A stretch of DNA of 64,000 nt from Opitutia bacterium (GTDB lineage Bacteria; Verrucomicrobiota; Verrucomicrobiia; Opitutales; T3Sed10-336): assembly GCA_003558065.1 (NCBI GenBank), contig PWMU01000171.1, forward strand, positions 277 to 64,276. The letters run 5' to 3'. A program made the translations under genes and the position numbers. The notes under the pieces were generated by a model that was not told where the DNA came from, searched no databases, and saw only the letters and a list, made by a program, of their open reading frames with translations. Below are positions 23,219-53,436 of this stretch, piece by piece (positions within the stretch are counted from its first letter, which is position 1; each line of letters begins with the position of its first letter).

Positions 23219-23385
23219 TTTCGGGAACGAGTGACGACGAACACGAGGCACTAGTTTTTCGGTTTGGGCGCGACAAACGCAACCTTCGTTTTCGGCCGGA
23301 GGGATCATTTGTTGATGAACTATTTCCGAATTTCTTGACCTGGATCAAAGGTTCGAACTAGTTTTCGGCCTATTATTGACGAACC

Positions 23386-28095: not shown

Positions 28096-28533
28096 ATGAA
28101 CGAAGTTTACCGCAAGATTCCACACCGTCCTCCTTTTCTCTTCGTCGATGAGATCATCGAACGGAACGAAGATTCGATCACCACCCGGCGGGTTCTGCGC
28201 GAAGACGAAGCGCATTTCGAGGGACATTACCCCGGAAATCCCATCATGCCGGGCGTTCTCCTGTGCGAAGCGGTGTTCCAGGCCGGCGCCATTCTCCTGG
28301 CCAATCACGCCGGGGGCGAGCCGGGTGACCGGACTCCCGTGCTGACGCGCATCAGGGACGCCCGTTTCAAGAACATCGCCCGTCCGGGCGACGAGCTGAC
28401 TATTCGAGCAACCCTGATGGAAACCCTCGGTCAGTTCCGGTTTCTGCGCGGCAGCATCACCGCCGGGGACAGGAAAATCATGACCGTGGAATTCGGCCTT
28501 GCCTTGATTGAAGAGAATCGGTCCTCCTCATGA
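28096..28533 (+). CDS. FabZ-like 3-hydroxyacyl-ACP dehydratase (hotdog fold)
   Basis: [13 protein letters not shown]...[23 protein letters not shown] contains the catalytic His and the FabA/FabZ signature. Confidence 0.85.
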
Positions 28534-29333
28534 GTTTCCTCAACCTCGAAAACAAGAACATCCTCGTGTTCGGCGTCGCGAATCGCAAGAGCGTCGCTTA
28601 TCAGACCGGGAAAATCCTGGAAGAGCAGGGCGCCCGGGTCATTTACAGCGTGCGTTCGCCGGAGCGGCGCGAGCAGGTGCGCAAGTTGCTCGGTGAGGCG
28701 CCCGTGTATGTTTGCGACGTCGAGCGGGAGGAGGAGATCCGTCACTTGGCCGCGGCGGTGGCGAACGATCACGGCTCCCTTCACGGAATCGTCCATTCCA
28801 TCGCCTTCGCCAATTACAGCGAGGGATTCAAGCCGTTCCACGAGACTCAACGTGAAGACTTCCTGCAGGCAACGGCCATTTCCTGTTTCTCTCTGGTGGA
28901 GATCGCCCGCGCGTTCAAACCCTGCCTCGACCCGAAAGCGTCGGTTGTCGCGGTGAGCATCTCCTCCCACCTGGTCACCGCGGCGAATTACGGTTATATG
29001 TCACCGATCAAATCCGCCCTGGACGGAACGGTCCGCAACCTCGCCAAGTCGTTCAGCGCGGATACGGAAGTGCGGTTCAATACCGTCAACGCCGGACTGC
29101 TCAAAACGAGCGCCTCGGCCGGCATTCCCGGTTACATCGAAAGCTATCTTTACGGCGAAAAAATGACCTTCCGGAAGCGGGCGCTGGCCACCCGGGAAGT
29201 CGCCGATGCCATCCTGTTTCTGCTGAGCGAGCGATCCAGCGGGATGAACGGGACCGGCATGGTTATTGACGCGGGACTGGGGTGCAACTACTTCGACCAG
29301 GAACTGATCGACCTGGCGATGAAGCGGGCGTGA
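28530..29333 (+). CDS. FabI-like enoyl-ACP reductase (SDR)
   Basis: It aligns with FabI by eye: [15 protein letters not shown] (compare VTGVASKLSIAY) and the Y-x6-K motif in [12 protein letters not shown]. Its ATG overlaps the FabZ-like stop (ATGA). Confidence 0.8.
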
Positions 29334-29348
29334 TCGGGGGATTATTGG

Positions 29349-30395
29349 ATGAAGTTTGCCCACACGGTGCTTGAAACGCTGGCCTACGATCTTCCATCCA
29401 CCAGGTGGACTTCGGACGAGATCGAGGAGCGGCTGAAGCCTCTCTACGAGCGGCTGAAACTCCCGGCGGGGAGGCTGGAACTGATGACGGGGATCCGGGA
29501 GAGGCGTATTTGGGATTCGGGCACGCTGCCATCCGAGGCAAGCATCCTGGCCGGCAGGAAGGCGCTCGCCGCTTCAAAGATTCCCAGGGAGAAGATCGAT
29601 GTCGTGATCCACGCCGCGGTGTGCCGGGACCGCCTCGAGCCGGCGACGGCGGCCTACGTGCACGGGGCCCTGGAACTGTCGCCTCACACGCAGTTTTTCG
29701 ATGTCTCGAACGCGTGCCTGGGATTCCTCAACGCCGTAACGCTTGCCGGGGCCCTGATCGACTCCGGGCAAATCCGCAGCGCGTTGATCGTGGCCGGTGA
29801 AAACGGCCGGCCCCTTCTTGAGAACACCCTCAAACGCCTGCTCGACCCGGGACTGACGCGGAACGACATCAAACCCTATTTCGCCAATCTCACGATCGGC
29901 TGCGGAGCCGTGGCCGGGGTGGTGTGTCACGCCGGTCTGACCTCTTCGGGTTCCCGGTTCATAGGCGGGGCGTCGGTGACGGATACCGGGCAGAATCGTT
30001 TGTGCGAAGGCGACTCCGCCGCCGGCGGCGATGAACTCGAGATGCAGACCAACAGCGAAGAGCTGCTGGTTGCCGGTGTCGCCCTGGCGCGGAAAACCTG
30101 GATCGAGTTCAAACGGGAAACCGGGTGGGACGAGACGACCCCCGGGCGGATTGTCTGCCACCAGGTCGGCTCCGCCCATCGCCGCAAACTCTACGAATGC
30201 CTCGGGCTTTCCCTGGAAAAGGATTTCTCGACGTTCGCCACTCTCGGCAACATCGGTTCGGTGTCACTGCCGATCACGCTGGCACGGGCCGTCGAGGCGG
30301 GGGCGGTGCGCGGCGGCGACCGTGTTGCGCTGCTCGGTATCGGGAGCGGCATCAGCTCGATGATGCTGGCCATGGAATGGGGCGAAAATCAATGA
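29349..30395 (+). CDS. oleA: OleA-type thiolase (KAS III-fold head-to-head Claisen condensing enzyme)
   Basis: 348 aa. It is collinear with my recollection of Xanthomonas OleA: LAYDLPSTRWTSDEIEERLKPLYERLKLP, RERRIW, CRDRLEPATAAYV (Glu), FDVSNACLGF (Cys), LTIGCGA, CHQVGSAH (His), GNIGSVSLP (Asn), and the LLGIGSG...MEW end. Confidence 0.7.
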   Translation: MKFAHTVLETLAYDLPSTRWTSDEIEERLKPLYERLKLPAGRLELMTGIRERRIWDSGTLPSEASILAGRKALAASKIPREKIDVVIHAAVCRDRLEPATAAYVHGALELSPHTQFFDVSNACLGFLNAVTLAGALIDSGQIRSALIVAGENGRPLLENTLKRLLDPGLTRNDIKPYFANLTIGCGAVAGVVCHAGLTSSGSRFIGGASVTDTGQNRLCEGDSAAGGDELEMQTNSEELLVAGVALARKTWIEFKRETGWDETTPGRIVCHQVGSAHRRKLYECLGLSLEKDFSTFATLGNIGSVSLPITLARAVEAGAVRGGDRVALLGIGSGISSMMLAMEWGENQ

Positions 30396-31327
30396 TCACG
30401 GAATCCGAAAACGACGGCAACCGGGCCGAGTCGGCAGGTGACGGGGATGATCCCTTCTCGTGGGGGTCGTGGCGCGCCCTGTATCCCTTTAGAAGCCATT
30501 ACCTCACCGTCGGACAGGGGGCGCGGATGCACTACGTCGACGAAGGCGAGGGGGATCCGGTCTTGATGGTCCACGGAAATCCAACCTGGTCGTTTTATTA
30601 CCGCAGGCTGATCCTCGGGCTGCGCCGGAGGCACCGGTGCGTGGCGCCCGATCACATCGGCTGCGGCCTGTCCGACAAGCCCGGTGATTATACCTACCGC
30701 CTGCACCGGCACGTGGAGAATCTGGAGAAACTGGTGACCGGACTGGACCTGAAGAACCTCACCTTGGTGCTTCACGACTGGGGGGGCGCCGTCGGGATGG
30801 CCATGGCTCAGCGGCATCCGGAGCGGATCCGGCGTATCGTCCTCTTGAATACCGCTGCCTTTCCCTCCCCGCGCATTCCGTTTCGGATCGCCGTTTGCCG
30901 GACGCCTGTATTGGGCGCGGTGGCCGTCCGGTTCTTTAACGCCTTTGTCCGGGCCGCGCTCCGCATGGCGGTGGTCCATCGGGATCGAATGACTCCCAAT
31001 ACCGTGAGCGGCTACCTGCACCCCTACGACAGCTGGAGAAACCGGATTGCCGTCCTGCGATTCGTGCAGGACATTCCCATGAAGCCGGAGCACCCGAGTT
31101 ACGCGCTTCTGGCAAGGACCGGTGAAAACCTCGGGATCTTCCGGGACCGCCCCATGCTGATCTACTGGGGTGCCCGGGATTTCTGTTTCGATGACAGTTT
31201 CCTCCGCAAATGGCGCGAGCTGTTTCCTGAAGCCGAAATCCGCCGTATTGCGGACGCCGGCCATTACGTGCTCGAAGACGCGCACGAGGAAATCATTCCG
31301 GCGGTGCAGCGTTTTCTGGAAACTTGA
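30392..31327 (+). CDS. oleB: OleB-type alpha/beta hydrolase (haloalkane-dehalogenase-like; beta-lactone decarboxylase family)
   Basis: The ATG overlaps the OleA stop (ATGA). Motifs are HYVDEGEGDPVLMVHGNPTWSFYYR, PDHIGCGLSDKP, the nucleophile elbow LVLHDWGG, and the C-terminal DAGHYVLED. Confidence 0.7.
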   Translation: MITESENDGNRAESAGDGDDPFSWGSWRALYPFRSHYLTVGQGARMHYVDEGEGDPVLMVHGNPTWSFYYRRLILGLRRRHRCVAPDHIGCGLSDKPGDYTYRLHRHVENLEKLVTGLDLKNLTLVLHDWGGAVGMAMAQRHPERIRRIVLLNTAAFPSPRIPFRIAVCRTPVLGAVAVRFFNAFVRAALRMAVVHRDRMTPNTVSGYLHPYDSWRNRIAVLRFVQDIPMKPEHPSYALLARTGENLGIFRDRPMLIYWGARDFCFDDSFLRKWRELFPEAEIRRIADAGHYVLEDAHEEIIPAVQRFLET

Positions 31328-33111: not shown

Positions 33112-34245
33112 TCAGAACGGCAGCTTCAGGCGTTTCGCCGAAATTCCGTGTTCGGCGAGTTTTTCGTCGAGGCGGCCCGTGTCAAGAATTCCCGCTAATC
33201 GCCCGCCCTGGAATACCGGGAAGATCTTCCGCTTGTTACGTGCGAGCATTTCGTAGAAAAGGTCCAGCGGCCATTCCGCCTGGAGGATGGATATATTCCG
33301 TTCGCAATGCCGGCCGACGGGATCGGTGTGCAGGAATTGTTCCTCGGTGAGGATGTCGGCCTGCTGGCGTGTCAACATGCCGAAAAGGGAACCTTTCTCG
33401 ACGAGCAAGAGCACGCGCGAACCTTCCTCATTCAGCAACCGCAGGCCTTCCCCGACGGGGATGTCCGGCCGGACGGTTGAAAAGTCGGAGTCAAGGAGGT
33501 GTCCCACATGAAGGTCCTTGAGGGTTTCCTTTCGTTCGACCATCCGGTACTCGAGATTGCCCGCGATGAAGATAAAGGCGAACAGGAGGGCCGGAAGAAT
33601 CGCGATCTGGTATCCCAGCAGAGGCAAGCCGACCAGCGCCAGGGCTATGCCGGCCGAGGCCAGGATTTTCGAGACAATGGCGGCGGTTCCCGTCGCCTTC
33701 AGGTAGGAGAGGCGGTAGGTCAGGAACGCCCGGAACATGCGGCCCCCGTCCATGGGGAAGATGGGCAGGAGGTTGAACATGCCCATCACCAGATTGACAA
33801 TCAGGAGGGCCTGGAAAAAGGTCTGCGTGTTGACCAGGGGGAAATATCCGCCCAGGGAAAGGGCGAGAAACTCCCTCGGAATCCCGCCCAGGGCGAAGAG
33901 CGGCACCGCGAGGGCGAAGTTGACCAGGGGGCCGGCCAGGGCGATGATCACTTCCTTTCTCGCCTCGCGCGGAACGCTTTGGAACTGTGCCATTCCGCCG
34001 ATCGGCAGCAGGAGAATACGAATGACTTCAATGCCGTACCGCTGGGCGACCAGACTGTGGCCGAGCTCGTGGAGAACGACGCACCCGAACACAGCCAGGA
34101 TGAACAGGACGGACCAGAACATGGCGCCCACTCCGTCCAGCGCCCAGCCCGTCCAGGCAAAAAGCCCCACCAGAATCAAAAAAGTAGCGTGCACCTCCAA
34201 CCGGATCCCGAACACAGAGAACAAGTTAATTGACCAGTACCGCAT
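33112..34245 (-). CDS. M50 site-2 protease family metalloprotease with a C-terminal CBS pair
   Basis: The HExxH motif is in VLHELGHSLVAQRYG, and the second motif is FNLLPIFPMDGGR. The C-terminal part is CBS-like. Confidence 0.85.
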   Translation of the reverse strand: MRYWSINLFSVFGIRLEVHATFLILVGLFAWTGWALDGVGAMFWSVLFILAVFGCVVLHELGHSLVAQRYGIEVIRILLLPIGGMAQFQSVPREARKEVIIALAGPLVNFALAVPLFALGGIPREFLALSLGGYFPLVNTQTFFQALLIVNLVMGMFNLLPIFPMDGGRMFRAFLTYRLSYLKATGTAAIVSKILASAGIALALVGLPLLGYQIAILPALLFAFIFIAGNLEYRMVERKETLKDLHVGHLLDSDFSTVRPDIPVGEGLRLLNEEGSRVLLLVEKGSLFGMLTRQQADILTEEQFLHTDPVGRHCERNISILQAEWPLDLFYEMLARNKRKIFPVFQGGRLAGILDTGRLDEKLAEHGISAKRLKLPF

Positions 34246-34299
34246 GGACGCTTAGGAAGGGTGATTCATCCTTGTGTGGCTTTTGAGGTCGGACCCGGT

Positions 34300-34327
34300 T
34301 TGACCCATGAGCCGATGATTTGATAAT
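34300..34327 (+). promoter_or_regulatory. Candidate sigma70-type promoter for the NtrC-like gene
   Basis: TTGACC (34300-34305), a 16-nt spacer, then GATAAT (34322-34327). The -10 element ends 7 nt before the ATG at 34335, which would imply a leaderless or near-leaderless mRNA. Confidence 0.3.
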
Positions 34328-34334
34328 CCAGTAA

Positions 34335-35888
34335 ATGACAACCTCGAGCAAAAGTCCAACCATTCTGGTCGTCGACGACGACCAGGAGATCCGCTATTCG
34401 ATGGAGCGGGTTTTTTCGTCCCGGAACTACCGCCTGTTGACGGCGGCCAGCGGCGAGGAAGGTATCGAGATCGTGCGCCGTGAATCGCCGGATGTGGTTT
34501 TTCTGGATATCCGCATGGGGGGAATCAGCGGTTTGGAAACGCTGCAGCACCTGAGGTCCATCGATCCGAATCCGATGATTATTCTGATGACGGCCTATGG
34601 AACCACCCAGACGGCGATCGAGGCGATGAAATTCGGAGCCTTCGATTACCTGATGAAACCCTTCGATATGAAGAAGGTGATCCGGTTGACGGAGGGGGCG
34701 CTCAAGTCCCGTGAGGATCTCCGCAGGATCGGGGATTACCGGCCTGTCATCAACAGCGAGGACTATCGGGAAGGCATTGTGGGCCGGTCGGAGGCGATGC
34801 AGGAGGTTTTCAAGATGATCGGCCAGGTGGCTGCCAGCGACGCGACGATTCTGATAACCGGCGAAAGCGGCACAGGGAAGGAACTGGTATCGCGGTGTAT
34901 TTACCAGCACAGTCAGCGGCACAAGAAACCGTTTTTTGCGGTGAATTGCGCGGCGCTGCCGGATAACCTGATCGAGAGCGAGCTTTTCGGTCATGAAAAA
35001 GGGGCGTTCACCGGCGCCACCGGCCAGCGGGCCGGAAAATTCGAACTCTGTGACGGGGGAACAATTTTTCTCGATGAAATCGGGGACATGAGTCTGCCGA
35101 CCCAGACGAAGATTCTCAGGGTGATTCAGGACGGCGAGATCCAGCGGGTCGGGGGGTCGGAGACGATCAGGACCGATGTGAGGATGATCGCGGCGACCAA
35201 CCGGAATCTCGAAGCGATGGTGCGGGAGAAGACTTTCCGCGAGGACCTTTATTATCGCTTGAATGTGGTGAGAATCCGCCTCCCTTCGCTTCGCGAGCGC
35301 CGGGAGGATATTCCGGAACTGATCGATTACTGTCTTCAGAAACTGCAGAAGAAGCACAAGTCGCGTGTTCGAACCGTTTCTCCGGAAACACGCGCCGCCT
35401 TGATGCGGTACGAGTGGCCGGGGAACGTTCGGGAACTGGAGAACGTGATCTATCGGAGCGCCGTGCTTGCCCAGGGGGACGCGATTCTAGTGAAGGATCT
35501 GCCCGAGGAAATCCGGGCGGCCGGGGAGGGAGGAGCGATCCCGGAAGAGGCGGGAGCGTCCGGGGAGGGTCCCGCAAAGGCTCCGGTTTCGGTCGAAGAT
35601 CCCGGAAAGGCCGCGGCGGGGGCGGCCGGGTCTGTGCCGGAGAGTCATTCAGGGGAGTCCTTGTCGCCGGCCGAACCCGAGAACATGGACGTGACGTTCA
35701 CTGCTCTCTACGAGCGAATGCGGGAGGAGTCTCATGAATCGATTCTCGAAACGCTGGAGCGCGAGATGATTTTGCGGGCACTCCGTGAGACCCGCGGCAA
35801 CCAGGTCAAGGCCTCGGCCATTCTTGGGATCACCCGCGCCACCCTCCGCAAGCGGATCGAGCGGTTTTCATTGAAGGATCAATTGTGA
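34335..35888 (+). CDS. Sigma54-dependent response regulator (NtrC/AtoC family enhancer-binding protein)
   Basis: It has a receiver domain (ILVVDDD...DVVFLDIRM), an AAA+ sigma54-interaction domain ([29 protein letters not shown]) and a Fis-type HTH ([21 protein letters not shown]). Confidence 0.9.
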
Positions 35889-36022
35889 TCGCGTCGGGAG
35901 CGTGCCGTTCCTGTGACTCCGGAGCGGTGCCCGCATTGAGCGGCTCCCGCGGGCATTCGGGGCGGCGATCCGCCAAAATCGTGCTTTCCCTTGGACCCTG
36001 GATTGTGCTAGTCCTGTACGGC

Positions 36023-37561
36023 ATGAGCCGTTTTTCCCTTGTTGCCGTCCGTCTCACTGTAGGGATTTCCTTTTTCTATACGGCCTGGCTTCCCTTGTCC
36101 CACGCGACGCTGCCCTCGGGAGCCGAGATTATTGAGGGGTCGGCCGGTCTGTTCGAAATGAGAGCCAGCTACCTGGTCGAGCAGGAGAGCGACCGGGTGG
36201 TGATCGAGTGGGAGGATTTTTCGATCGGCGAGGGCAGGCGGGTGACATTCGATCAGCCCGGGGCGGCCGCGGCGGCACTGAACCGTGTGGTCGGGGGAGA
36301 TCCGACGGAGATCCACGGGGAACTGAACGCGAACGGCAAGGTGTACCTCATCAATCCGAACGGCGTTCTCGTCGGATCGAGTGGGGTGATCCATGCCGGC
36401 TCGTTCATCGCCTCGACGCTCGACGTCGACAATGACGGTTTTATGGGCGGGGGCGACCTGGAGTTTGCCGTTGCGGACGACGACCTGCGAAGTGCGGTTC
36501 GGAACTTCGGGGAGATTCAGGCGCTCGGCGGGGATGTTTTTCTCTTTGCGCAACGGGTGGAGAACCGGGGGCGCCTGGAGGCTCGTTCGGGAACCGCCGG
36601 ATTGGCGGCGGCGGGCCGCCTGCTCCTGAAGAGTTCCGGTGACCGGCGTATCGCGGTGCTGGCGCCGCCCGGGGCCGAGGCAGGCGAAGACGAGGAAGCC
36701 TCCGTCTGGAATACCGGCCAGATTCGCGCCGCCTCCGTCGAGCTTAAGGCGGCGCGGGGCAATCACTACGCGCTGGCGATCAATAACGAAGGAGTGGTGC
36801 GCGCCGACACGGTTGAAGAGGACGGCGGCCGGATTTTCCTCAGGGCGGGTTCGGGCGACGTCTCCCACACCGGCCAACTCGATGCTTCGGGCAACCGTGG
36901 CGGCCGGGTGGAAGTCGAGGGCGACAACGTGGAGGTTGCGGATGGCGGCGGTATTGACACTTCCGGCGGCGGAACCGAGGCGAGCGGTTGGATCGACGTG
37001 CGCGGCGGGAACCTGCTGTTGAACGGAACGATCACCGGGCAGGGGAGGATGCGGTATTTTGCCGGGCAGGACATTGAGATCGGGCCCGCGGGAGTGATCG
37101 ACAATTCGGGAAGTGTGGAGGCGACCCTCTTTGTCGTCGATCATGCCAATCCGGATCGTCCCGGCGTGGGTTCGGGGGTGTTCGTCAACCTGGGCGTCCT
37201 GACTCCGGGTAACGCACTGGGCATTTTTACGGCCGGCCCGCGGGATATTCGGCCGCGCAACGTCGAGGGAATCGTCGATGAAGTCGTGTTCGACACCTGG
37301 TTCGGGGAACCCGGCGAGATCGTGGGGAATCGTCTCTTTTTCAAGTCCGGGCCGCCCCTGCCCGACCCCTCCTGGAGCCCCGCGTTCGATCTGTACGATC
37401 GTTTGGCCGCTCTTTACGACTGGCCCGTGATCCCGGTGTCCGCCGCCGTGTTTTATTATGAAGAGGATCCCGAACGCCGGGAATTTGCTCCGGAACTCAC
37501 GGAGCCCGGGCGCCTGAGTGAAACCGGTCTCAGCAGCAGCGGGGCATTCAGGAGGAACTGA
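36023..37561 (+). CDS. Short TpsA-like exoprotein with a hemagglutination-activity (TPS) domain
   Basis: TPS hallmarks are IEWEDFSIGEG..VTFDQP, ALNRVVGGDPTEIHGELNANGKVYLINPNGVLVG, followed by beta-helical G-rich coils. Start chosen at the signal peptide MSRFSLVAVRLTVGISFFYTAWLPLSHA. An alternative GTG at 35885 overlaps the regulator stop. Confidence 0.8.
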   Translation: MSRFSLVAVRLTVGISFFYTAWLPLSHATLPSGAEIIEGSAGLFEMRASYLVEQESDRVVIEWEDFSIGEGRRVTFDQPGAAAAALNRVVGGDPTEIHGELNANGKVYLINPNGVLVGSSGVIHAGSFIASTLDVDNDGFMGGGDLEFAVADDDLRSAVRNFGEIQALGGDVFLFAQRVENRGRLEARSGTAGLAAAGRLLLKSSGDRRIAVLAPPGAEAGEDEEASVWNTGQIRAASVELKAARGNHYALAINNEGVVRADTVEEDGGRIFLRAGSGDVSHTGQLDASGNRGGRVEVEGDNVEVADGGGIDTSGGGTEASGWIDVRGGNLLLNGTITGQGRMRYFAGQDIEIGPAGVIDNSGSVEATLFVVDHANPDRPGVGSGVFVNLGVLTPGNALGIFTAGPRDIRPRNVEGIVDEVVFDTWFGEPGEIVGNRLFFKSGPPLPDPSWSPAFDLYDRLAALYDWPVIPVSAAVFYYEEDPERREFAPELTEPGRLSETGLSSSGAFRRN

Positions 37562-37598
37562 TCCTGTAATTCTTCTTATGTCACCAGGGCAATAAACT

Positions 37599-39371
37599 AT
37601 GAGGTTGAGCAACGTATCCGGCATATTGGCAGCGCTCCTTTGGGTGGTGGTTCTGGGCGCGACGGCATTGAGCGCGCAGGACGAGGATGAAACGACTCCG
37701 CACGAGCCCGAGGGAGAGGAGGAGAGGCCGGAGGTTCCATTTGAACTGCCCGATTTCGACCGGGATGAGGACGAGGCGACGGTTCTTATTGAGGAGTTGA
37801 AAGCACTGGTGATCCGTCCTGCCCTGGCGGAAGAAAGACGCGACCTCCCCTCGCAGGCGACCGGTATCGTTTATGTCACGGGGCTTCCCTTGCTGAACAC
37901 CCCGGAATTCAGGCGCAACGCCCGGAAGTACCTGGGGAAACCGCTGACAACCGAGACGTTGGACGAACTTCTCCGCGAAATCATCATCACTTACCGCGAT
38001 AATCGCCGGCCTGTAGTCGACGTGATCGTTCCGGAACAGGACGTGACCCACGGGCACCTGGTTCTCGAGGTGTTGGAGGGGCAGGTGGGCCGCGTGCAGG
38101 TGACCGGCCAGCGCTGGTTCCGCCGGCCGATTTTCACGAGCAAGATTCGCTTTGAACGCGGCGATGAAATCGATTCGCTGATGCTCCAGGAGGACCTCGA
38201 CTGGATGAACAGGAATCCCTTCCGGCGGGTCGACGTGGTTTATGCGCCGGGCTCCGAACCCGGCGAGACCGACCTGTTATTCGAGGTCGAGGACCGGTTT
38301 CCGTTCCGTGTTTACGGCGGTTTTGAAAATACCGGTAACCGGCTCACCGGCGAAGAACGCTTTCTGGCGGGCTTCAACTGGGGGCACGCGTTTGCCATGG
38401 ATCACGAGCTCAACTACCAGTTCACCACCGGCCGGTACATGGACCGGGTTAAGGCTCATTCGGGGAGCTACGTGATACCCTTGCCGCTGCGTCACGAAGT
38501 CCGTTTCTTCGGCAATTACGTCGAATCCGATGTGGACGTCGATTCCAACCTGGCCCTGGAAGGGGAATCCCTCCGGCTCAGCGGACGATATGCGATTTTT
38601 CTGACGGGGTGGGAGCTTCCCTCACGCGGTTTGAGCCTGTCCCAGGAGTTTACCCTGGGGGCCGATTTCAAGCGGGCGGACAATTCCCTCGAGTGGGGGG
38701 AGATCAATGTCTATGACACCGCGACCGAAATCATACAGGCAATGACCCGCTACAGTGGAACGCTGAGGGATCCTTTCGGGAAGAGCGAGTTCCACGCCGG
38801 AGTGTATTACAGTCCCGGCGATTTCATCAGCAGACGGAACCGGGACCGCTTTTTTGACGAGGCTCGCGCCGGTGCCGAATCCAGGTACTACACGGCGCGG
38901 CTGGGTTTTGACAGATTGTCCCATATTTCCCAGGGCTTCACTTTAAAAAAGAGCGGGTTGTATCAGTACACGGACAGCCGTTTGCTCGCCAGCGAACAGC
39001 TCGGGGTCGGCGGGCATGCCAGCGTTCGGGGGTACGAGGAGCGGGCCGCCGCCGGGGACAACGGCTATTTGCTGAGCGCGGAACTCAGGTCGCCGGAATT
39101 CAACTGGAACGAACTCACGGGGTTCGGGCGCCCGGCACCCGACCGATGGCAAGTGCTCGGCTTCCTCGACTACGGCGTTGCCGAAATCAAGGATCCGCAG
39201 GCCGGCGAGGAGCGGCGCAGGCATTTGCTCGGCGCGGGCCCGGGCCTCCGAGTCAGAGTCGACGACAACTTTTTTCTGCGTTTCGACTACGGCTGGCAGA
39301 TACGGGATGACGCCGTGGCGAACGACACAAGGGATCACCGGGCACACGCGGCGGTGATTCTGAGCTATTGA
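37599..39371 (+). CDS. ShlB/FhaC/HecB-family TpsB outer-membrane transporter
   Basis: It has a signal peptide, a POTRA-type region (LVLEVLEGQVGRVQVTGQRWF) and a C-terminal beta-barrel ending in an aromatic residue (...AAVILSY). Confidence 0.85.
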   Translation: MRLSNVSGILAALLWVVVLGATALSAQDEDETTPHEPEGEEERPEVPFELPDFDRDEDEATVLIEELKALVIRPALAEERRDLPSQATGIVYVTGLPLLNTPEFRRNARKYLGKPLTTETLDELLREIIITYRDNRRPVVDVIVPEQDVTHGHLVLEVLEGQVGRVQVTGQRWFRRPIFTSKIRFERGDEIDSLMLQEDLDWMNRNPFRRVDVVYAPGSEPGETDLLFEVEDRFPFRVYGGFENTGNRLTGEERFLAGFNWGHAFAMDHELNYQFTTGRYMDRVKAHSGSYVIPLPLRHEVRFFGNYVESDVDVDSNLALEGESLRLSGRYAIFLTGWELPSRGLSLSQEFTLGADFKRADNSLEWGEINVYDTATEIIQAMTRYSGTLRDPFGKSEFHAGVYYSPGDFISRRNRDRFFDEARAGAESRYYTARLGFDRLSHISQGFTLKKSGLYQYTDSRLLASEQLGVGGHASVRGYEERAAAGDNGYLLSAELRSPEFNWNELTGFGRPAPDRWQVLGFLDYGVAEIKDPQAGEERRRHLLGAGPGLRVRVDDNFFLRFDYGWQIRDDAVANDTRDHRAHAAVILSY

Positions 39372-39767: not shown

Positions 39768-40805
39768 TCATCCTGCCGGGCTGAGGCGGCAACTGTGACA
39801 CGAAAACCCGGCGCCGAAGGAAGCCAGCCAGAAATCTCCCTCCCCGGTATCGTTTTCCAGAGCGCGATCCAGAGCGAAGAGAACGCTGGGGCTGCTCATG
39901 TTGCCGCAGTGCCGGAGGGTTTCATAACTCTCCGAAAGCGGATGCCCGGGAAGCTGGCCCTCGATCGCGGCGAGCACATCCCGCCCCCCGGGGTGGGCGA
40001 GAACCGTGCCGACCGGAATTCCGTTGTCAGCCGAAAACAGGGATTTGACCGCGAGGGCCGCCTTTTCCGGGACCGTTTTATGCAGCTTGTTGCGCAGCTT
40101 GCCGGCCTGGGTCTCGAAGCGGAGCAATTCCCGGTCGGCGGGAATGTGAACCGTGCGGAATCCATGGGCGTATCTTGCGGGGCGTCCGGCGCGCGGCTTC
40201 CCCGTGCAGACCGCGGCCGCCGCGCCGTCGGAAAAGAGACAGGCGCTGATCAGAACCCCCGGGTCGTTGTCCAGATAAAAGGCCGCCGAACAGATCTCCA
40301 CCGCGACCACGGCAACGCGGGAATCCGGCTGAGCGGCAAGAAAATGGCCGGCCGCGCGCATGGTCGGAATCGCGGCGCCACACCCGAGACCAACCAGATC
40401 CTGCAGAAACCCGTCGGAGCGAATGCCGAGCTGTTCCGAAACATAGCTGCTCAATCCGGGACAAAGGTAGCCGGTACAGGTGCAGATCAACAGGGCGTCG
40501 AGATCGGCGGGACGCAGGGAAGCGCGGTCGAGCGCGTCGCGTAAGGCCCGCCCCGCGAGCAGCGGGGCTTCGCGGCGAAAGGTTTCGTTCAGTTCGTCGA
40601 CGTCCTGATCGAATACCCGCTCGATTTCCGGCGTGACAAAGTGCCGCGAGGCGATTCCGTTGTCGGTGGTCAGAACCTTGCGCAGAATCGACAGCGACCT
40701 GGAGGTGAGACCCTTGACCAGATCGGATCCGTTCAGGATTTCCCAGCACTCGTTCTGCGTAAAACGATTGGGAGGAACGGCCGTGGCTAAGGATTGAACG
40801 TACAT
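39768..40805 (-). CDS. Type III polyketide synthase (chalcone/stilbene synthase superfamily)
   Basis: The Cys-His-Asn triad contexts are VGLGCGAAIPT, LAHPGGRDV and CGNMSSPSV. Start chosen at MYVQSLATAVPPNRFTQ. Confidence 0.85.
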   Translation of the reverse strand: MYVQSLATAVPPNRFTQNECWEILNGSDLVKGLTSRSLSILRKVLTTDNGIASRHFVTPEIERVFDQDVDELNETFRREAPLLAGRALRDALDRASLRPADLDALLICTCTGYLCPGLSSYVSEQLGIRSDGFLQDLVGLGCGAAIPTMRAAGHFLAAQPDSRVAVVAVEICSAAFYLDNDPGVLISACLFSDGAAAAVCTGKPRAGRPARYAHGFRTVHIPADRELLRFETQAGKLRNKLHKTVPEKAALAVKSLFSADNGIPVGTVLAHPGGRDVLAAIEGQLPGHPLSESYETLRHCGNMSSPSVLFALDRALENDTGEGDFWLASFGAGFSCHSCRLSPAG

Positions 40806-40937
40806 GCGCTGGGATCCGAGGGTTGACAACTCACTGGCCAGATCGTCGCACAACAGGACAAACCCTGGCTGTGTCCACTATGTCTGGAACCGCCGGCGGA
40901 TCAAACCACGGCGGCCGGAAATCCGGCCCCGGCACGT

Positions 40938-47830: not shown

Positions 47831-50005
47831 ATGAGCGTTTCGCGCAGCATTCGTATCGGGATCGACGTGGGCGGGACGTTTACCGACGTCGTGGCCATCG
47901 ATGCCGGGACCCGCCAGGTGGTGGGGTACACCAAGGTGCCCACGACCCACGAGGCGGAGGAAGGGGTAGCCCGGGGGATACTGGACGCCCTGAGCGGTAT
48001 CCTTGAACGCCACGCAATCCGGCCCGGGGAAATCACGTTTCTGGCACACAGCACGACCCAGGCGACCAACGCCCTGCTGGAGGGCGACGTTTCCCGCATT
48101 GGGGTCATCGGGGCGGGAAAGGGCTTTACGGGTTGGCAGACTTCCATGGGGATCCGGTTCGGCGCCCTGAAGCTGGCGGAAGGGCGGTTTCTGGATTCCG
48201 TGCCGGCCTACATTGAAACAGCCGGCGAGGAATCGTTTGAGAAGGGCCTGGCGACGGCGCTCAAACGAATGAAGGACGAACGGGTCGGGGCGATTGTCGC
48301 GGTGGAAGCGTTCTCGGTGGACGATCCGGAAACCGAGTCCCGCATCGCCGGGGCGGCCCGGGAGGCCGGGTTTCCGGCGACCGCCACGCACGAAGTGTCC
48401 TCGCTCTACGGGCTGCGGCTCAGGATTCGCACGGCAGTGATCAACGCGGCCATCCTGCCGAAGATGATGGAGACCAGTGAAAGGACCGCGACCGGGGTGG
48501 CCGACTCCGGGGTGGATGCCACCCTCATGATTATGCGCAGCGACGGCGGGGTGATGAGCCTCGACGAGATGCGGCGGCGTCCCATCCTGTCGTTTCTGTC
48601 CGGCCCGGCCGCCGGGATTGCCGGGGCGCTGATGTACGAAAAGGTTTCCGACGGTATCTTTCTCGAGGTTGGCGGGACCAGCACCGACATCTCGGTCATC
48701 CGTGACGGTCTTCCCCAGACCCGGCCGGCCACCATCGGCGGGAACCGGGTCTTTCTCAACACACTGGACGTCCGAACCATCGGGTTGGCCGGAGGCAGCA
48801 TGCTCCGGGTCCGGGAGAGGCGACTCGCGGGCGTCGGACCCAGGAGCGCCCACATCGCGGGGTGCCGGTACCTGGCTTTTTCCAGGGCCCAAGAAATCGA
48901 ATCCGCGGCGCTCGAGGAGGCCGCCACCGCCGGAGATGCGACCAACCGGTATCTCGTGTTCGTCACGCCGGACGGAGCCCGCATCGCACCCACCCTGACC
49001 TGTGCGGCGAATTTTCTGGGGTACGTCGAAGCCGACCAGTACGCACGGGGTGATGCCGAGGTGACCCGGGCCGGATTCGTCCGCTTGGGAGAATACCTTG
49101 GAATGCCGCCTGAGGAGGTGGCCGGAGAGATGTTTGAACAGGCGCTCCCCCTGGTGGAAGCGCCCCTGCACCGTCTGATCCACGAGTATCACCTGGATGC
49201 CGGCATGGTCGAGCTGGTCGGAGGAGGGGGTGGGGCCGCCGCCATCCTCCCGGCCTTGCGCGAGCGACTGGGATGGAACACCCGCATCTCGCGTCACGCG
49301 CCCATTATTTCGGCTGTCGGGGTGGCCCTGGCCCTGGTCAAGGAGGTGGTGGAGCGCAATGTGGTGAATCCGAGTGATGAGGATGTTTTAAGGGTGCGTC
49401 ATGAGGCCCGGACCGCGGCTATCCGGGCGGGAGCCACCCCGGAGACGGTCGAAGTGAGGGTGGAGGTCGACCGCCAGCGGAATATTCTTCAAGCCACCGC
49501 CACCGGAGCGTCGGAGATCCGGGAGGCCAGGGAGGACAAGGGAAGTGAAATGACCGAAGAAGCCCTGCGGGAGGTCGCTGTCCTGTCGCTCGGCATGGCT
49601 GCCGAGCGGGTTCAGCTCGCCGGGCGGGCCGACGGGTTCCGGGTGTTTCGGGGTGTCGAACCCGTGCGCAGGCTCGGTGGCCTGTGGCGGGGAAAGCGGG
49701 AGGGAATCCGGGTGGTGGACACGGAAGGGGTGATTCGGTTGCGGCGGACCCGGGGCCGGGTGCTTGAGTCGACCGCCGGGGTGATCGGGGGCGAGTTGAG
49801 CGGGGCCGTCGCCGATGAGACCGCGTACGGCGACGCCGGGCAGGTGGTGCCCGACGTGTTCCTGCTCCACGGAGGGCGTATCGCCAATTTCACCGGGATT
49901 ACCCAGGTGGAGCACGTCTCCAAGCTCGCCATGGACGAGCTTCAGGGGGCTTCGGACGAGGATTCAGTGGTGGTTCTTATTTGCCGGAAGGAATACGACG
50001 CATGA
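47831..50005 (+). CDS. Hydantoinase/oxoprolinase (HyuA-like, ASKHA-fold) family protein
   Basis: The N-terminal IRIGIDVGGTFTDVVAID is the Hydant_A_N signature, and a later GGPAAG-like segment reads LSGPAAGIAGA. No HyuB partner is adjacent. Confidence 0.8.
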   Translation: MSVSRSIRIGIDVGGTFTDVVAIDAGTRQVVGYTKVPTTHEAEEGVARGILDALSGILERHAIRPGEITFLAHSTTQATNALLEGDVSRIGVIGAGKGFTGWQTSMGIRFGALKLAEGRFLDSVPAYIETAGEESFEKGLATALKRMKDERVGAIVAVEAFSVDDPETESRIAGAAREAGFPATATHEVSSLYGLRLRIRTAVINAAILPKMMETSERTATGVADSGVDATLMIMRSDGGVMSLDEMRRRPILSFLSGPAAGIAGALMYEKVSDGIFLEVGGTSTDISVIRDGLPQTRPATIGGNRVFLNTLDVRTIGLAGGSMLRVRERRLAGVGPRSAHIAGCRYLAFSRAQEIESAALEEAATAGDATNRYLVFVTPDGARIAPTLTCAANFLGYVEADQYARGDAEVTRAGFVRLGEYLGMPPEEVAGEMFEQALPLVEAPLHRLIHEYHLDAGMVELVGGGGGAAAILPALRERLGWNTRISRHAPIISAVGVALALVKEVVERNVVNPSDEDVLRVRHEARTAAIRAGATPETVEVRVEVDRQRNILQATATGASEIREAREDKGSEMTEEALREVAVLSLGMAAERVQLAGRADGFRVFRGVEPVRRLGGLWRGKREGIRVVDTEGVIRLRRTRGRVLESTAGVIGGELSGAVADETAYGDAGQVVPDVFLLHGGRIANFTGITQVEHVSKLAMDELQGASDEDSVVVLICRKEYDA

Positions 50006-50349
50006 GCCCGGAAAGGGAAGAAGCCACCCGCCTGGGGCTGCTGATCGAGAGCGATTACTCCCCCTTGCAGGTCCCCCGTCCCGGGTGCCGGGGGCTCCTC
50101 GCGGCGGTCTACCCGCATGCGGCTCGAATCGTCCTGTTTGAGCGCAATATTCAGGCGTTTTGCAGGTCGAACGGGGTGTCCGTCGAAACGAAGCGGGAGG
50201 CGTTGATCCGGCATGAGCTTCACCATTACCGGGAATGGCGGAGGTGCCGGCGGGCGGGGCGCCGCTGGCACCCGCGGGACCCCGGAGAGGAACAGGCCGC
50301 GAGACGGGCGGAAAATCCCGCTGATAAATCATCCGCTGACTTGACCTGA
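50002..50349 (+). CDS. Small hypothetical protein with an HExxH motif
   Basis: Its ATG overlaps the hydantoinase-like stop (ATGA). The sequence reads MSPEREEATRLGLLIESDY...REALIRHELHHYREW and has an Arg-rich tail. Confidence 0.45.
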   Translation: MSPEREEATRLGLLIESDYSPLQVPRPGCRGLLAAVYPHAARIVLFERNIQAFCRSNGVSVETKREALIRHELHHYREWRRCRRAGRRWHPRDPGEEQAARRAENPADKSSADLT

Positions 50350-50390
50350 CGCCCTTCCCGGGGTTTCGATGGGGGGCCTTTTTTCATTTC

Positions 50391-51626
50391 ATGACCAATA
50401 GCAGAATCGTCATCACAGGCGTCGGCCTGACCGCTCCCAATGGCGACACCCTGGGGGAGTTTCGAAAAAACCTTCTCAGCGGGGTGGCGGGAGTCGAAAA
50501 TATCGAGACCCGTTACATGGGGACGGTGCACGCAGGGGTGTGCCATTTCGATCCCCTGAAGTACCAGAAGAAAAAGGCCCTGCGGATCGGGACGCGGGCC
50601 GGGAGCGTCGCGATTTACTGTTCCAGGGAGGCCGTCGCGGACAGCGGGCTGGACTGGGACGGGGTGGACAAGGACCGTGTCGGGGTGTACCTCGGGGTGA
50701 CCGAGCACGGTAACGTTGAAACCGAGAACGAGATCTACAACATCTCGCAATTCAACTACGATACGCGCTACTGGACCCACCACCACAACCCGCGCACGGT
50801 GGCGAACAATCCGGCGGGGGAGGTGACCATCAATATGAAGATCACCGGACCCCACTACACCATCGGCGCTGCCTGCGCCGCGGGGAATGCGGGGTTGATC
50901 CAGGCTTTGCAGATGCTGCGTCTGGGCGAGGTGGACGTGGCCCTGGCCGGAGGGGTCAGCGAAAGCATCCACACCTTCGGGATTTTTGCGGCTTTCAAGA
51001 GCCAGGGAGCGCTCGCCCACCATGTAGACCCCGGCAAGGCCAGCCGGCCCTTCGACCGCGACCGCAATGGCATCGTGGTCAGCGAGGGGGGGTGCGTGTT
51101 CACGGTCGAAAGGCTCGAGGACGCGCAGGCGCGGGGTGCGAAAATCTACGCCGAGATCGTGGGGTACGCCATGAATTCGGACGCCAAGGATTACGTGTTG
51201 CCGTATTCGGTGCAGCAGGGGGCCTGCATCCGGCAGGCGCTCAAACGGGCCGGGTTGGAGCCCGCCCGGATCGATGTCGTCAACACACACGCCACCGCGA
51301 CCCCCCTGGGGGACGAACAGGAATGCATCGCCCTCCGGGAGGTGTTTTCGGACTGTCCCGACACCTATGTCAACAACACCAAGGGGTTCATCGGCCACGC
51401 CATGGGGGCGGCCGGCGCCCTGGAGCTGGCCGGCAACCTGCCGTCGTTCCACGATGGCAAGATTCACCCCTGCCTCAACGTCGACCAGGTCGACCCGAAA
51501 TGCGAGGTCAACAACCTGGTGGTCGGGAAACCCCTCGAGGGCAGGCGGGTCAACGTGATCCTCAATAATTCTTTCGGGATGTTGGGAATTAATTCAGTTT
51601 TGATTGCCAAGGCGTACGTGGAGTAG
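50391..51626 (+). CDS. Beta-ketoacyl-ACP synthase I/II family (FabF/FabB-like elongating KAS)
   Basis: The Cys-His-His triad contexts are IGAACAAGNAGL, NTHATATPLGD and KGFIGHAMGAAG. Confidence 0.9.
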   Translation: MTNSRIVITGVGLTAPNGDTLGEFRKNLLSGVAGVENIETRYMGTVHAGVCHFDPLKYQKKKALRIGTRAGSVAIYCSREAVADSGLDWDGVDKDRVGVYLGVTEHGNVETENEIYNISQFNYDTRYWTHHHNPRTVANNPAGEVTINMKITGPHYTIGAACAAGNAGLIQALQMLRLGEVDVALAGGVSESIHTFGIFAAFKSQGALAHHVDPGKASRPFDRDRNGIVVSEGGCVFTVERLEDAQARGAKIYAEIVGYAMNSDAKDYVLPYSVQQGACIRQALKRAGLEPARIDVVNTHATATPLGDEQECIALREVFSDCPDTYVNNTKGFIGHAMGAAGALELAGNLPSFHDGKIHPCLNVDQVDPKCEVNNLVVGKPLEGRRVNVILNNSFGMLGINSVLIAKAYVE

Positions 51627-51648
51627 TAGAGTCAACCCTTTTGATTAT

Positions 51649-51909
51649 ATGACCGAAGAAGAGTGCAAACAGATCGTTGTTAAAATTATCGCGGATATCG
51701 CCCCTGACGAGGACCTAAATGACCTCAAGGATGATGTGCGCCTGCGGGACCAGCTGGACCTCGATTCCATGGATTTTCTGGATATCGTTATGGAACTCCG
51801 CAAACAGCATGGTATCGAAGTACCGGAAGAGGATTATCCGAAACTGGCCTCCCTCGACAGTTGTGCGGAGTACCTGACGCCCAAGTTTTTGGAAAAGCAG
51901 TCGGTTTAG
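51649..51909 (+). CDS. Acyl carrier protein
   Basis: 86 aa. The phosphopantetheine site is in LDLDSMDFLDIVMEL. Start at the internal ATG MTEEECKQ. Confidence 0.8.
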   Translation: MTEEECKQIVVKIIADIAPDEDLNDLKDDVRLRDQLDLDSMDFLDIVMELRKQHGIEVPEEDYPKLASLDSCAEYLTPKFLEKQSV

Positions 51910-51951
51910 AGGGGCGCCCCGGGCGGTTCTTGGGACCAGGGGCTCGAAAGG

Positions 51952-53436
51952 ATGCCGGAAACCGTGTTACAGGCACCCGGAGAGTCGCATTATGACGTGC
52001 TGATTATCGGGGCCGGAATGGCGGGAATGGCCGCGGCCATCCGGCTGGCGCATTTCGGGAAAAAGGTGTGCCTCCTCGAGCGTCACACGGTTATCGGTGG
52101 CCTGAACAGCTTCTACAAGCTGGGCGGCCGCAAGTACGACGTCGGTCTTCACGCGGTCACCAACTACGTTCCCCGGGGTGTCCGCGGCACCCCGCTGGTG
52201 AAGCTGCTCCGGCAGCTCCGTATTCACCGTGAGGAGCTGGACCTGTGCGAGCAGCTCGGTTCGAAGGTGAGTTTTCCGGGGGAGGAGCTCACCTTCACCA
52301 ATGACTTTTCCGTGCTCGAAAGCGAGGTGGCGCGGGCGTTTCCGGGGCAGGTGGACGGGTTCCGGGCCCTGGCCGGGGAGGTGGCCGCCTTCGGTGACCT
52401 TTCGGGAGGAGGGGGGGGCGATCCTTCGGCCCGGTCGGTGATTCGCAGCCACATCACCGACCGGGGGCTCGAGGATATGCTGCTCTGCCCCCTGATGTAT
52501 TACGGGAGTGCCAGGGAGGGTGATATGGATTATTCCCAGTTCGCGATCATGTTCCAGGCCGTTTACCTGGAAGGATTTGCGCGGCCGTTTGAGGGGGTCC
52601 GGCGGTTGACCCGAACCCTGCTCCGCAAGCTGCGCGAGGCAGGTGCTGAGCGGTGTATGGGGTGCGGGGTTCGGGAACTGCGGATCGACCGGGGAAGGGT
52701 GGCGGGGGTGATCCTTGACTCCGGCCGGGAGGTGACCGCCGGTGCCGTGTTGTCGTCGGCGGGGGTGACGGAGACGCTCCGGCTCTGCCGGGAGGCGCGG
52801 GAGCCGGAACCACCCCGCAACGACGACAATGTGGGGCGGCTCAGCTTCGTCGAATCGATCACCGTGTTCCGGGGTCAGCCCCGCGATCTGGGGTGCGACA
52901 ACACCATAATCTTTTACAACGACGCCGGCCGCTTTGATTACTCGGTTCCGGGGGATCTGGTCGACCCGCGCAGCGGGGTGATCTGTTTTCCGAACAATTT
53001 CGACTACGGTGACCGTCAGCTCCCGGAGGGGTTTTTCCGCATCACCTGTCTCGCCAACTGCGACGGCTGGTGCTCCCTCCCGGAGAAAGAGTACCGGGCA
53101 CAGAAGGAGCGGTGGTTCGAGACGATGGTCGCCCGCGCCCTCAAGTTTCTGCGCCCGGTCAACCGGGAAACCCTCAACGAGCGCACCCTGGCCCGCGACA
53201 TGTTCACCCCCCGAACCATCACCCGGTACACGGGGCACATCAACGGAGCGGTGTACGGGGCTCCGAAAAAGGTCAAGGACGGCTGCACGCCCTACGAAAA
53301 CCTCTTTCTCTGCGGGACCGACCAAGGGTTCCTGGGAATCACCGGTGCCATGCTCAGCGGCATCTCCATGGCGAACCGGCACGTCCTGTCGCGGAAGAGT
53401 GATAAATCCCTGGAAAAAATGACTCAAGCCCCGTAG
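51952..53436 (+). CDS. CrtI/RetSat-like NAD(P)/FAD-dependent oxidoreductase (phytoene desaturase family), copy 2
   Basis: YDVLIIGAGMAGMAAAIRLAHFGKKVCLLERHTVIGGL, and the C-terminal TPRTITRYTGHINGAVYG. It shares both blocks with 26472..27947. Confidence 0.85.
   Translation: MPETVLQAPGESHYDVLIIGAGMAGMAAAIRLAHFGKKVCLLERHTVIGGLNSFYKLGGRKYDVGLHAVTNYVPRGVRGTPLVKLLRQLRIHREELDLCEQLGSKVSFPGEELTFTNDFSVLESEVARAFPGQVDGFRALAGEVAAFGDLSGGGGGDPSARSVIRSHITDRGLEDMLLCPLMYYGSAREGDMDYSQFAIMFQAVYLEGFARPFEGVRRLTRTLLRKLREAGAERCMGCGVRELRIDRGRVAGVILDSGREVTAGAVLSSAGVTETLRLCREAREPEPPRNDDNVGRLSFVESITVFRGQPRDLGCDNTIIFYNDAGRFDYSVPGDLVDPRSGVICFPNNFDYGDRQLPEGFFRITCLANCDGWCSLPEKEYRAQKERWFETMVARALKFLRPVNRETLNERTLARDMFTPRTITRYTGHINGAVYGAPKKVKDGCTPYENLFLCGTDQGFLGITGAMLSGISMANRHVLSRKSDKSLEKMTQAP

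Follow-up and report, generated by a model that had tools for sequence, protein, structure and literature searches.

The window analysed here, a 64-kb stretch of contig PWMU01000171.1 from an Opitutia bacterium, carries at 50391-53436 on the plus strand three genes (hereafter the triad) that encode a dedicated elongating ketosynthase of the β-ketoacyl synthase (KAS) I/II type, an acyl carrier protein (ACP), and a flavoprotein that we call FlvB. The KAS gene (50391-51626, 411 aa), the ACP gene (51649-51909, 86 aa, starting at an internal ATG of an open reading frame [ORF] that opens with TTG at 51604) and the FlvB gene (51952-53436, 494 aa) are arranged head to tail, 22 bp separating KAS from ACP and 42 bp ACP from FlvB, exactly where an earlier note on this DNA had placed them. 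The KAS matches both ketoacyl-synt domains of Pfam (PF00109 and PF02801) over their full length, and its translation contains the motifs GAACAAG, NTHATAT, and KGFIGHAMGAAG, from which the Cys-His-His triad that is a feature of elongating KAS enzymes can be read. The ACP has a DSM phosphopantetheine site in the motif LDLDSMDF and matches PP-binding (PF00550) with 34.6 bits, so that motifs and Pfam domains agree on the Cys-His-His ketosynthase and the 86-aa DSM carrier protein described in that note. FlvB matches Amino_oxidase and NAD_binding_8 and is a CrtI-fold flavin adenine dinucleotide (FAD) protein of a distinct family. A scan for promoters and terminators gave counts no higher than those expected from shuffled sequence; the one exception is a hairpin at 50360-50380 (+) that resembles a terminator, carries a T-run, and ends ten bases 5′ of the KAS start codon. 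The triad and the hydantoinase-like genes 5′ of it (47831-50349) probably belong to separate transcripts.

A second group of genes lies on the same strand at 26 to 31 kb, 19 kb away from the triad (22.5 kb from the end of its first gene to the start of KAS). It consists of FlvA (26472-27947), a second CrtI-fold flavoprotein from a separate orthologous group, a FabZ-type 3-hydroxyacyl-ACP dehydratase (DH; 28096-28533, PF07977), a FabI-type enoyl-ACP reductase (ER; 28530-29333, adh_short_C2 with 193 bits), an OleA-family thiolase (29349-30395), and an OleB-like α/β hydrolase of the haloalkane-dehalogenase clade (30392-31327, PF00561) with an Asp nucleophile in the motif HDWGG. OleA passes the cut-off of NF006720 (424 bits against 285), scores 236 bits against the X. 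campestris OleA structures compared with about 70 bits against FabH, and in an alignment to 3ROW keeps Cys143, Glu117, His285, and Asn315 (numbering of the X. campestris construct). The remaining enzymes were assigned below the cut-offs of their models. DH reaches 94 to 99 bits on the FabZ models, and the top NCBIfam matches of ER, which carries a Y-x6-K motif (YGYMSPIK), are all FabI (164 bits), as opposed to 57 bits for FabG. The hydrolase reaches 156 to 180 bits on haloalkane dehalogenase models; it matched no OleB-specific model or structure and is 31 to 33% identical to the hydrolases in the oleB position of two operons discussed below (L090 and L091). No ketoreductase (KR) gene was found in the 26-31 kb locus. 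The family searches thus returned the content that had been claimed for this locus, including the lack of a KR. This lack holds for the window and not as a general trait, as FabG-like KR genes form part of the clusters in Nitrospinota, in Thermodesulfobacteriota, and on the contig of locus L093; the missing KR is lineage-specific.

Both KAS and ACP score far under the equivalog cut-offs of FabF and AcpP. Specifically, KAS reaches 305 bits on the fabF model TIGR03150 (cut-off, 493.75) and 227 bits against its best FabF match in the PDB, while the ACP reaches 34.4 bits on the AcpP model TIGR00517 (cut-off, 70.45), stays under all NCBIfam ACP cut-offs (34 to 40 bits against 66 to 71), and shares 23% identity over 52 aa with E. 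coli AcpP. The pair is therefore not the housekeeping one but makes up an orthologous group of its own, accessory to FabF and AcpP, in keeping with the accessory role that the note had given it.

A similar picture emerges for the flavoproteins. FlvA and FlvB align over their full length with 27% identity (E 3e-20), and so the proposal that they are paralogues stands in so far as they are homologues; their relation is only distant, that of an ancient duplication in which each copy has its own orthologous group. Window FlvA scores 457 to 724 bits against the FlvA of other lineages (524 bits against that of Nitrospinota) and window FlvB 223 to 567 bits against other FlvB proteins, whereas cross-comparisons between FlvA and FlvB give 56 to 122 bits. 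These scores indicate two old, separate orthologous groups that span several phyla. On the crtI_fam model (TIGR02734, cut-off 238), FlvB reaches 54 and FlvA 81 bits, and on the equivalog models of CrtD, CrtISO, and CrtO (cut-offs, 550 to 1000) they reach at best 67 and 100 bits, on models that require 550 to 587; a grouping with bona fide carotenoid enzymes, which would have told against the note's reading, is thus not borne out. The AlphaFold2 model of FlvB (mean predicted local distance difference test [pLDDT] score, 87.4) finds 4REP (E 6e-23), 4DGK, and 5MOG as its top Foldseek matches at 16 to 18% identity (16% for 4REP and 4DGK), all of them carotenoid desaturases. FlvB thus has the CrtI fold and yet, like FlvA, lies outside every curated carotenoid family.

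Given the distance between the two loci in the window, their arrangement in relatives is informative. In Opitutus sp. GAS368, the genes form a single run of eight, KAS-ACP-FlvB-FlvA-DH-ER-OleA-OleB. We sampled 80 species-representative Opitutales loci, gathered by a FlvB search from an 8-sequence alignment; homologues labelled Opitutaceae or Opitutales are 58 to 78% identical to window FlvB, and proteins identical to those of the window are present in assemblies of metagenome-derived genomes. KAS and ACP precede FlvB in 62 of the 69 loci with sufficient upstream sequence, an order that is therefore far from a chance arrangement. Among the 59 loci with sufficient downstream sequence, FlvA, which in relatives comes directly after FlvB, and the subsequent genes follow in 36, with the run extending to OleB in 27, and the other 23, including Cerasicoccus and Thalassobacterium, have the triad alone, as in the window. 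Since the triad adjoins the counterparts of the 26-31 kb genes in GAS368 and in those 36 loci, the window holds one cluster split by rearrangement, and the triad is the detached half of a conserved Ole-linked gene cluster. The window and GAS368 also have neighbours in common: an M50 protease gene (-) and a sigma-54 response regulator gene (+) lie 3′ of OleB in the window (33112-35888) and 5′ of the cluster in GAS368 (locus L001, 4891-7134, upstream of GalE-KAS). Because of these shared neighbours, a single rearrangement that parted an ancestral contiguous cluster would fit the data. The contiguity lends strong support to the note's proposal of a single pathway dispersed over two loci, and the co-occurrence of these loci speaks for it as well.

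Two genes near the cluster were considered as missing members of the ole set. The conserved short-chain dehydrogenase/reductase gene that lies divergently 5′ of KAS in most Opitutaceae (7248-8240 [-] in GAS368) was rejected as OleD, as it is GalE (TIGR01179, 420 bits). The AMP-binding gene at 21239-23308 (-) was rejected as OleC, being a 689-aa ligase of the long-chain acyl-CoA type that is not conserved near related clusters. This ligase gene lies 3 kb upstream of FlvA, and its product could activate fatty acids for OleA; it is a neighbour in 0 of the 80 related loci.

The FlvB family counts about 276 representatives at 50% identity (E ≤1e-30), with members labelled Lentisphaeria, Victivallales, Nitrospinota, Thermoguttaceae, and Bacteriovoracaceae. 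Across phyla, identity to the window proteins is 56 to 67% for both KAS and ACP (61 to 67% for the KAS of Nitrospinota, Thermodesulfobacteriota, Bacteriovoracaceae, and Rubripirellula), and falls to 30 to 50% for FlvB. Several loci outside Verrucomicrobiota place the triad, or its KAS-ACP pair, next to ole genes. In a Bacteriovoracaceae locus (L090), the order is KAS-ACP-FlvB-OleB-OleC-OleD, and on a contig without assigned lineage (L091) it is KAS-ACP-FlvB-OleA-OleB-OleC. The gene in the OleD position of L090 has OleD models as its best NCBIfam match (340 bits, under the cut-off of 580); the one in the OleC position reaches 339 bits on the OleC (olefin β-lactone synthetase) model, whose cut-off is 900, and fits the generic fatty-acid CoA ligase model NF006754 better (454 bits). 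Among planctomycetes, a Pirellulaceae locus (L083) reads OleD-KAS-ACP-FlvB, a Planctomycetia locus (L085) has KAS-ACP-FlvB-FlvA-DH-ER plus OleA, and Rubripirellula obstinata (L094, 10001-12747) has OleD-KAS-ACP without a flavoprotein, its KAS being 67% identical to that of the window. This last locus shows that the link of the accessory KAS-ACP pair to Ole does not depend on FlvB. The fullest form seen lies on a 1.75-Mb contig (L093, 5859-13991), where a FabG-like KR and a 4′-phosphopantetheinyl transferase (PPTase) join the run OleA-KAS-ACP-FlvB-FlvA-KR-DH-ER-PPTase. Further loci read KAS-ACP-FlvB-FlvA-KR in Nitrospinota (L087), KAS-ACP-FlvB-FlvA-KR-DH in a metagenome-assembled genome of Thermodesulfobacteriota (L092, 48 to 67% identical to the window proteins), and ACP-FlvB-FlvA-DH without KAS in Thermoguttaceae (L088). 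In Lentisphaeria (L089, 9033-11392), FlvB stands alone, without KAS or ACP, directly 3′ of a phosphatidylserine decarboxylase gene, a context that hints at a phospholipid setting for some members of the family. Taken together, the gene families, their kept order, their contiguity in relatives, and the recurrent adjacency of oleA, oleB, oleC, or oleD across phyla are features of the loci themselves, and the repeated physical link to ole genes is the strongest functional clue, which points to hydrocarbon (olefin) synthesis. As side observations, a gene for a small histone-fold protein is divergent from KAS in L090 (7790-8239 [-]; 36.5 bits on the archaeal histone model, under its cut-off), and a gene of similar size (146 aa) takes its place in L091, with no family match on record.

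We moderately favor the view that these genes make up an Ole-linked, dedicated type II acyl module that feeds OleA and gives polyunsaturated hydrocarbons of the C31:9 type. In such a module, KAS would elongate a chain bound to the dedicated ACP and so kept separate from the AcpP pool used for phospholipids. The KR activity would come from the housekeeping FabG in this genome and from the cluster-encoded FabG-like KR in other lineages, and DH and ER would carry out normal dehydration and reduction. FlvA and FlvB would take out hydrogens, and possibly isomerize, without O2, thereby placing double bonds in the growing acyl-ACP; that two distinct flavoproteins are kept suggests two distinct regiochemistries. 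OleA would then condense two such chains head to head, and OleD, OleC, and OleB would turn its product into a long-chain polyunsaturated olefin of the C31:8 or C31:9 type. With discrete enzymes, the module would thereby fill the role that Pfa synthase has in Shewanella, where it supplies OleA. The PPTase and KR of L093 fit the expectation for a self-contained secondary fatty-acid synthase (FAS), and we count them in favor of this module. The cluster is the best candidate for the route to polyunsaturated hydrocarbons in the many bacteria that make them without having the known polyunsaturated fatty acid (PUFA) synthase. It is tempting to go further, and we do so only tentatively: FlvA and FlvB could be the first CrtI-fold acyl-ACP desaturases or isomerases, part of an O2- and Pfa-independent synthase of discrete enzymes that feeds OleA and that would explain hydrocarbons of the C31:9 type in the Planctomycetes-Verrucomicrobia-Chlamydiae (PVC) group, Desulfobacterota, Nitrospinota, and Bdellovibrionota.

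Such a route would match a proposal that is itself still a hypothesis. Rattray et al. (2009) described phytoene-dehydrogenase-like flavoproteins in type II FAS (FASII) clusters of K. stuttgartiensis and D. psychrophila (DP1860, DP2405, and DP2406), reported C31:8 and C31:9 in D. psychrophila, in which polyketide-type PUFA genes were not found, and proposed an anaerobic FASII desaturase extension (PMC2649909). The D. psychrophila clusters resemble the present one in having a discrete FabF-like KAS, an ACP, and a dehydratase beside PF01593 flavoproteins, in an organism that makes C31:8 and C31:9 without pfa; DP2405 and DP2406, compared here by their consecutive locus tags and not by sequence, would parallel the adjacent FlvB and FlvA. 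Indirect support for this parallel comes from the Thermodesulfobacteriota genome of L092, with its order KAS-ACP-FlvB-FlvA-KR-DH. The clusters differ in that the D. psychrophila and anammox loci hold radical S-adenosylmethionine (SAM) enzymes, a membrane protein, and an acyl-CoA-ligase-like gene, none of which occurs here, and ole genes go unmentioned in the 2009 paper (PMC2649909), unlike the ole-linked cluster described here. A 2026 review still finds the flavoprotein pathway without experimental support (PMC13459092).

A parallel in role is the Pfa-OleABCD system of Shewanella and Photobacterium, which likewise has a dedicated, ole-linked ACP system that stands apart from FAS II and supplies a polyunsaturated chain to OleA; in Shewanella, OleA joins the ACP-based Pfa synthase to C31:9 (PMC6463001). 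Pfa, however, is a multidomain type I polyketide/fatty-acid synthase that places its double bonds via FabA-like DH/isomerase domains, whereas discrete type II proteins and flavoproteins occur here, and the sequence relation is limited to the ketosynthase (KS) and ACP folds. Compared with OleABCD of Xanthomonas and Shewanella, the window has an OleA with all four catalytic residues and an OleB-like hydrolase of the dehalogenase clade. Whereas oleC and oleD follow the triad in the Bdellovibrionota-like operons, the window and the Opitutales clusters have homologues of oleA and oleB only, and the canonical ole operon lacks the KAS, ACP, Flv, DH, and ER genes that surround oleA and oleB here. Another parallel is FabX of Helicobacter pylori, a flavin-dependent acyl-ACP dehydrogenase/isomerase that introduces a double bond without O2 and has a dedicated KAS partner. 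FabX is an FMN/[4Fe-4S] enzyme with the nitronate-monooxygenase fold that serves housekeeping synthesis of unsaturated fatty acids, whereas FlvB is an FAD protein with the CrtI fold.

Polyunsaturated C31 hydrocarbons serve as chemotaxonomic markers for planctomycetes, n-C31:9 being characteristic of Gemmataceae and frequent in planctomycetes (PMC7534041, PMC6995999). They are found as well in D. psychrophila and similar strict anaerobes, for which O2-dependent desaturases are not an option and in which Pfa synthase, the sole route to polyunsaturated chains known from bacteria, is missing. For Verrucomicrobia, Shulse and Allen list no pfa-like cluster (PMC3098273). The FASII-plus-flavoprotein route became entangled with the unsolved ladderane problem; linkage to ole indicates that hydrocarbons, and not ladderanes, are the likely product. 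What is added to the published record is this physical linkage to oleA, oleB, oleC, or oleD in several phyla, together with the two-family structure of the flavoproteins, and the searches found no literature that links the FlvA and FlvB families to ole clusters. The set defined in this way, two flavoprotein families and an accessory KAS-ACP pair that is 56 to 67% identical across phyla, is widely distributed, and the 2009 hypothesis is now directly testable. Culturable carriers include Opitutus, Oleiharenicola, Cerasicoccus, and Rubripirellula, the compact cluster of 8 to 9 genes suits heterologous expression, and the L093 run would be a good template for it. If true, the proposal would mean a new enzymology of anaerobic C-C desaturation of acyl chains and a handle for the production of polyunsaturated hydrocarbons.

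Several points weigh against the proposed olefin module. No gene for OleC or OleD was found in the window, nor at up to 10 kb from the cluster in any of the 80 Opitutales loci. Although ole genes have been reported in Opitutae (PMC5673642, PMC10176705), the basis for oleC and oleD elsewhere in Opitutales genomes is published annotation alone; a search with a Pirellulaceae OleD was uninformative for Opitutales, as the best 120 matches are all from planctomycetes where they carry an organism name, which most of the matches do not. The literature searched held no lipid data for this organism, for Opitutales, or for carriers of the full cluster, and the FlvA and FlvB families have no characterized member. 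CrtI forms conjugated trans double bonds that adjoin existing ones, whereas C31:9 has methylene-interrupted cis bonds, and so the chemistry is no simple transfer. Characterized OleA takes acyl-CoA in vitro and is not known to take acyl-ACP. The presence of an ER in the cluster argues for chains that are at least partly saturated. Finally, OleD-KAS-ACP occurs without FlvB in R. obstinata, and FlvB-FlvA occurs without a nearby ole gene in L087 and L088; the Flv and Ole links are therefore separable. Opitutaceae TAV2 reportedly produces C31:9.

The main rival to the olefin module is a secondary FAS primed by the OleA-like protein, in which the OleA-family enzyme serves as the KAS III that starts the chain and the OleB-like hydrolase works as a thioesterase. 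Its product would be either a long-chain ketone or an unusual (unsaturated) fatty acid, free or bound in the membrane. This is the reading to which the lack of OleC and OleD in the Opitutales cluster lends itself. It also draws on L093, where the OleA-like gene comes first in a seemingly complete FAS II set (KR, DH, ER, and PPTase) with no oleBCD nearby, on the clusters of Nitrospinota, Thermodesulfobacteriota, and Thermoguttaceae, which have no ole gene in the sequence examined, on the Lentisphaeria FlvB that adjoins a phosphatidylserine decarboxylase gene, and on the formation of ketones by OleA alone (PMC6463001). The proteins themselves argue otherwise: the likeness to OleA is far above that to FabH (236 versus about 70 bits), the OleA-specific Glu117 is kept, and the hydrolase nucleophile is the Asp of the dehalogenase/OleB clade and not a thioesterase serine. 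Moreover, ole runs lie directly 3′ of the triad in L090 (OleB-OleC-OleD) and L091 (OleA-OleB-OleC). We therefore regard a secondary FAS without olefin as unlikely, if still deserving serious consideration.

Less probable again is that the flavoproteins act after condensation, desaturating or isomerizing the long hydrocarbon or its β-lactone or acid precursor much as CrtI acts on phytoene in the membrane, with KAS and ACP supplying or tailoring the chains. The closest folds to FlvB are indeed hydrocarbon (carotenoid) desaturases, and KAS-ACP occurs with OleD and without FlvB in R. obstinata, so that KAS-ACP and FlvB are separable. Against this, FlvB nearly always comes right after the ACP gene, even where KAS is missing (ACP-FlvB-FlvA-DH in L088), and it is also found with KR, DH, and ER where no ole gene is nearby.

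A pigment pathway, whether carotenoid desaturation or a type II polyene synthase of the aryl-polyene or flexirubin-like kind, is very unlikely. It would account for the CrtI fold of FlvB, and several Opitutales relatives are pigmented; in addition, DH gives ApeI/ApeP-like Pfam matches, and the KR of Nitrospinota reaches 233 bits on the flexirubin FlxB model. However, FlvB and FlvA fall far short of crtI_fam (54 and 81 bits against 238), their neighbors are always KAS and ACP and never crtB or crtE, and the clusters have a single KAS and an ER, with no KS-chain length factor (CLF) pair, adenylating enzyme, LolA-like gene, or MMPL gene in any locus examined. The possibility that the KAS-ACP pair is no more than housekeeping fabF and acpP next to an unrelated flavoprotein gene, for which the intact Cys-His-His triad and FabF as the top-scoring named family of KAS might be cited, is scarcely credible in view of the scores (305 versus 494 bits for KAS and 34 versus 70 bits for the ACP, itself 23% identical to AcpP), the absence of any fabD, fabG, or fabH context, and the conservation of the pair at 56 to 67% across phyla solely in Flv or Ole contexts.

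The earlier note had also named, as a parallel, the phytoene-desaturase homologues proposed to act in ladderane synthesis in anammox bacteria. Its account matches the literature (PMC2649909, PMC4790861). Anammox Cluster I (kuste3603-3608) comprises amxACP, amxFabZ, amxFabF2, amxFabFmut, a phytoene desaturase-like flavoprotein, and a B12 radical SAM enzyme, and so shares with the present cluster a dedicated ACP, a dehydratase, a FabF homologue, and a CrtI-like flavoprotein, in a PVC bacterium; the present cluster departs from it in that a single KAS takes the place of a KS/CLF-like heterodimer, the flavoproteins are of two kinds, and ER, OleA, and OleB are present. Javidpour et al. (2016) found that the anammox flavoproteins make no lycopene (PMC4790861). 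The parallel does not extend to orthology: in BLASTP comparisons with their N-terminal ~400 aa, taken from PMC4790861 (Table S6), kuste3336 and kuste3607 match FlvA and FlvB at 37 to 96 bits, a range that also includes their scores against P. ananatis CrtI (78 to 86 bits), compared with 200 to 740 bits among orthologues within the FlvA or FlvB group, and they are therefore not orthologues of FlvA or FlvB. No radical SAM gene lies next to either locus, the sole radical SAM ORF found in the window being HemN-like (12187-13395). A ladderane-type pathway like that of Cluster I, for all the similarity of its cast of ACP, FabZ, FabF, and phytoene-dehydrogenase-like flavoprotein (PMC4790861; bioRxiv 10.64898/2026.05.19.726425), is thus effectively refuted by the nonorthologous flavoproteins and the lack of an adjacent radical SAM/B12 enzyme, to which can be added the lack of a second, mutated FabF and a host that belongs to Opitutales and not to Brocadiales.

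Two further features lie between the halves of the cluster in the window. A two-partner secretion pair at 35885-39371 (+), consisting of an exoprotein with a two-partner secretion (TPS) domain and a ShlB/FhaC-type transporter, appears unrelated to the lipid loci. At 39768-40853 (-), there is a type III polyketide-synthase-like ORF that matches PF08392 with 72 bits and the DpgA model with 116 bits, the latter under its cut-off.

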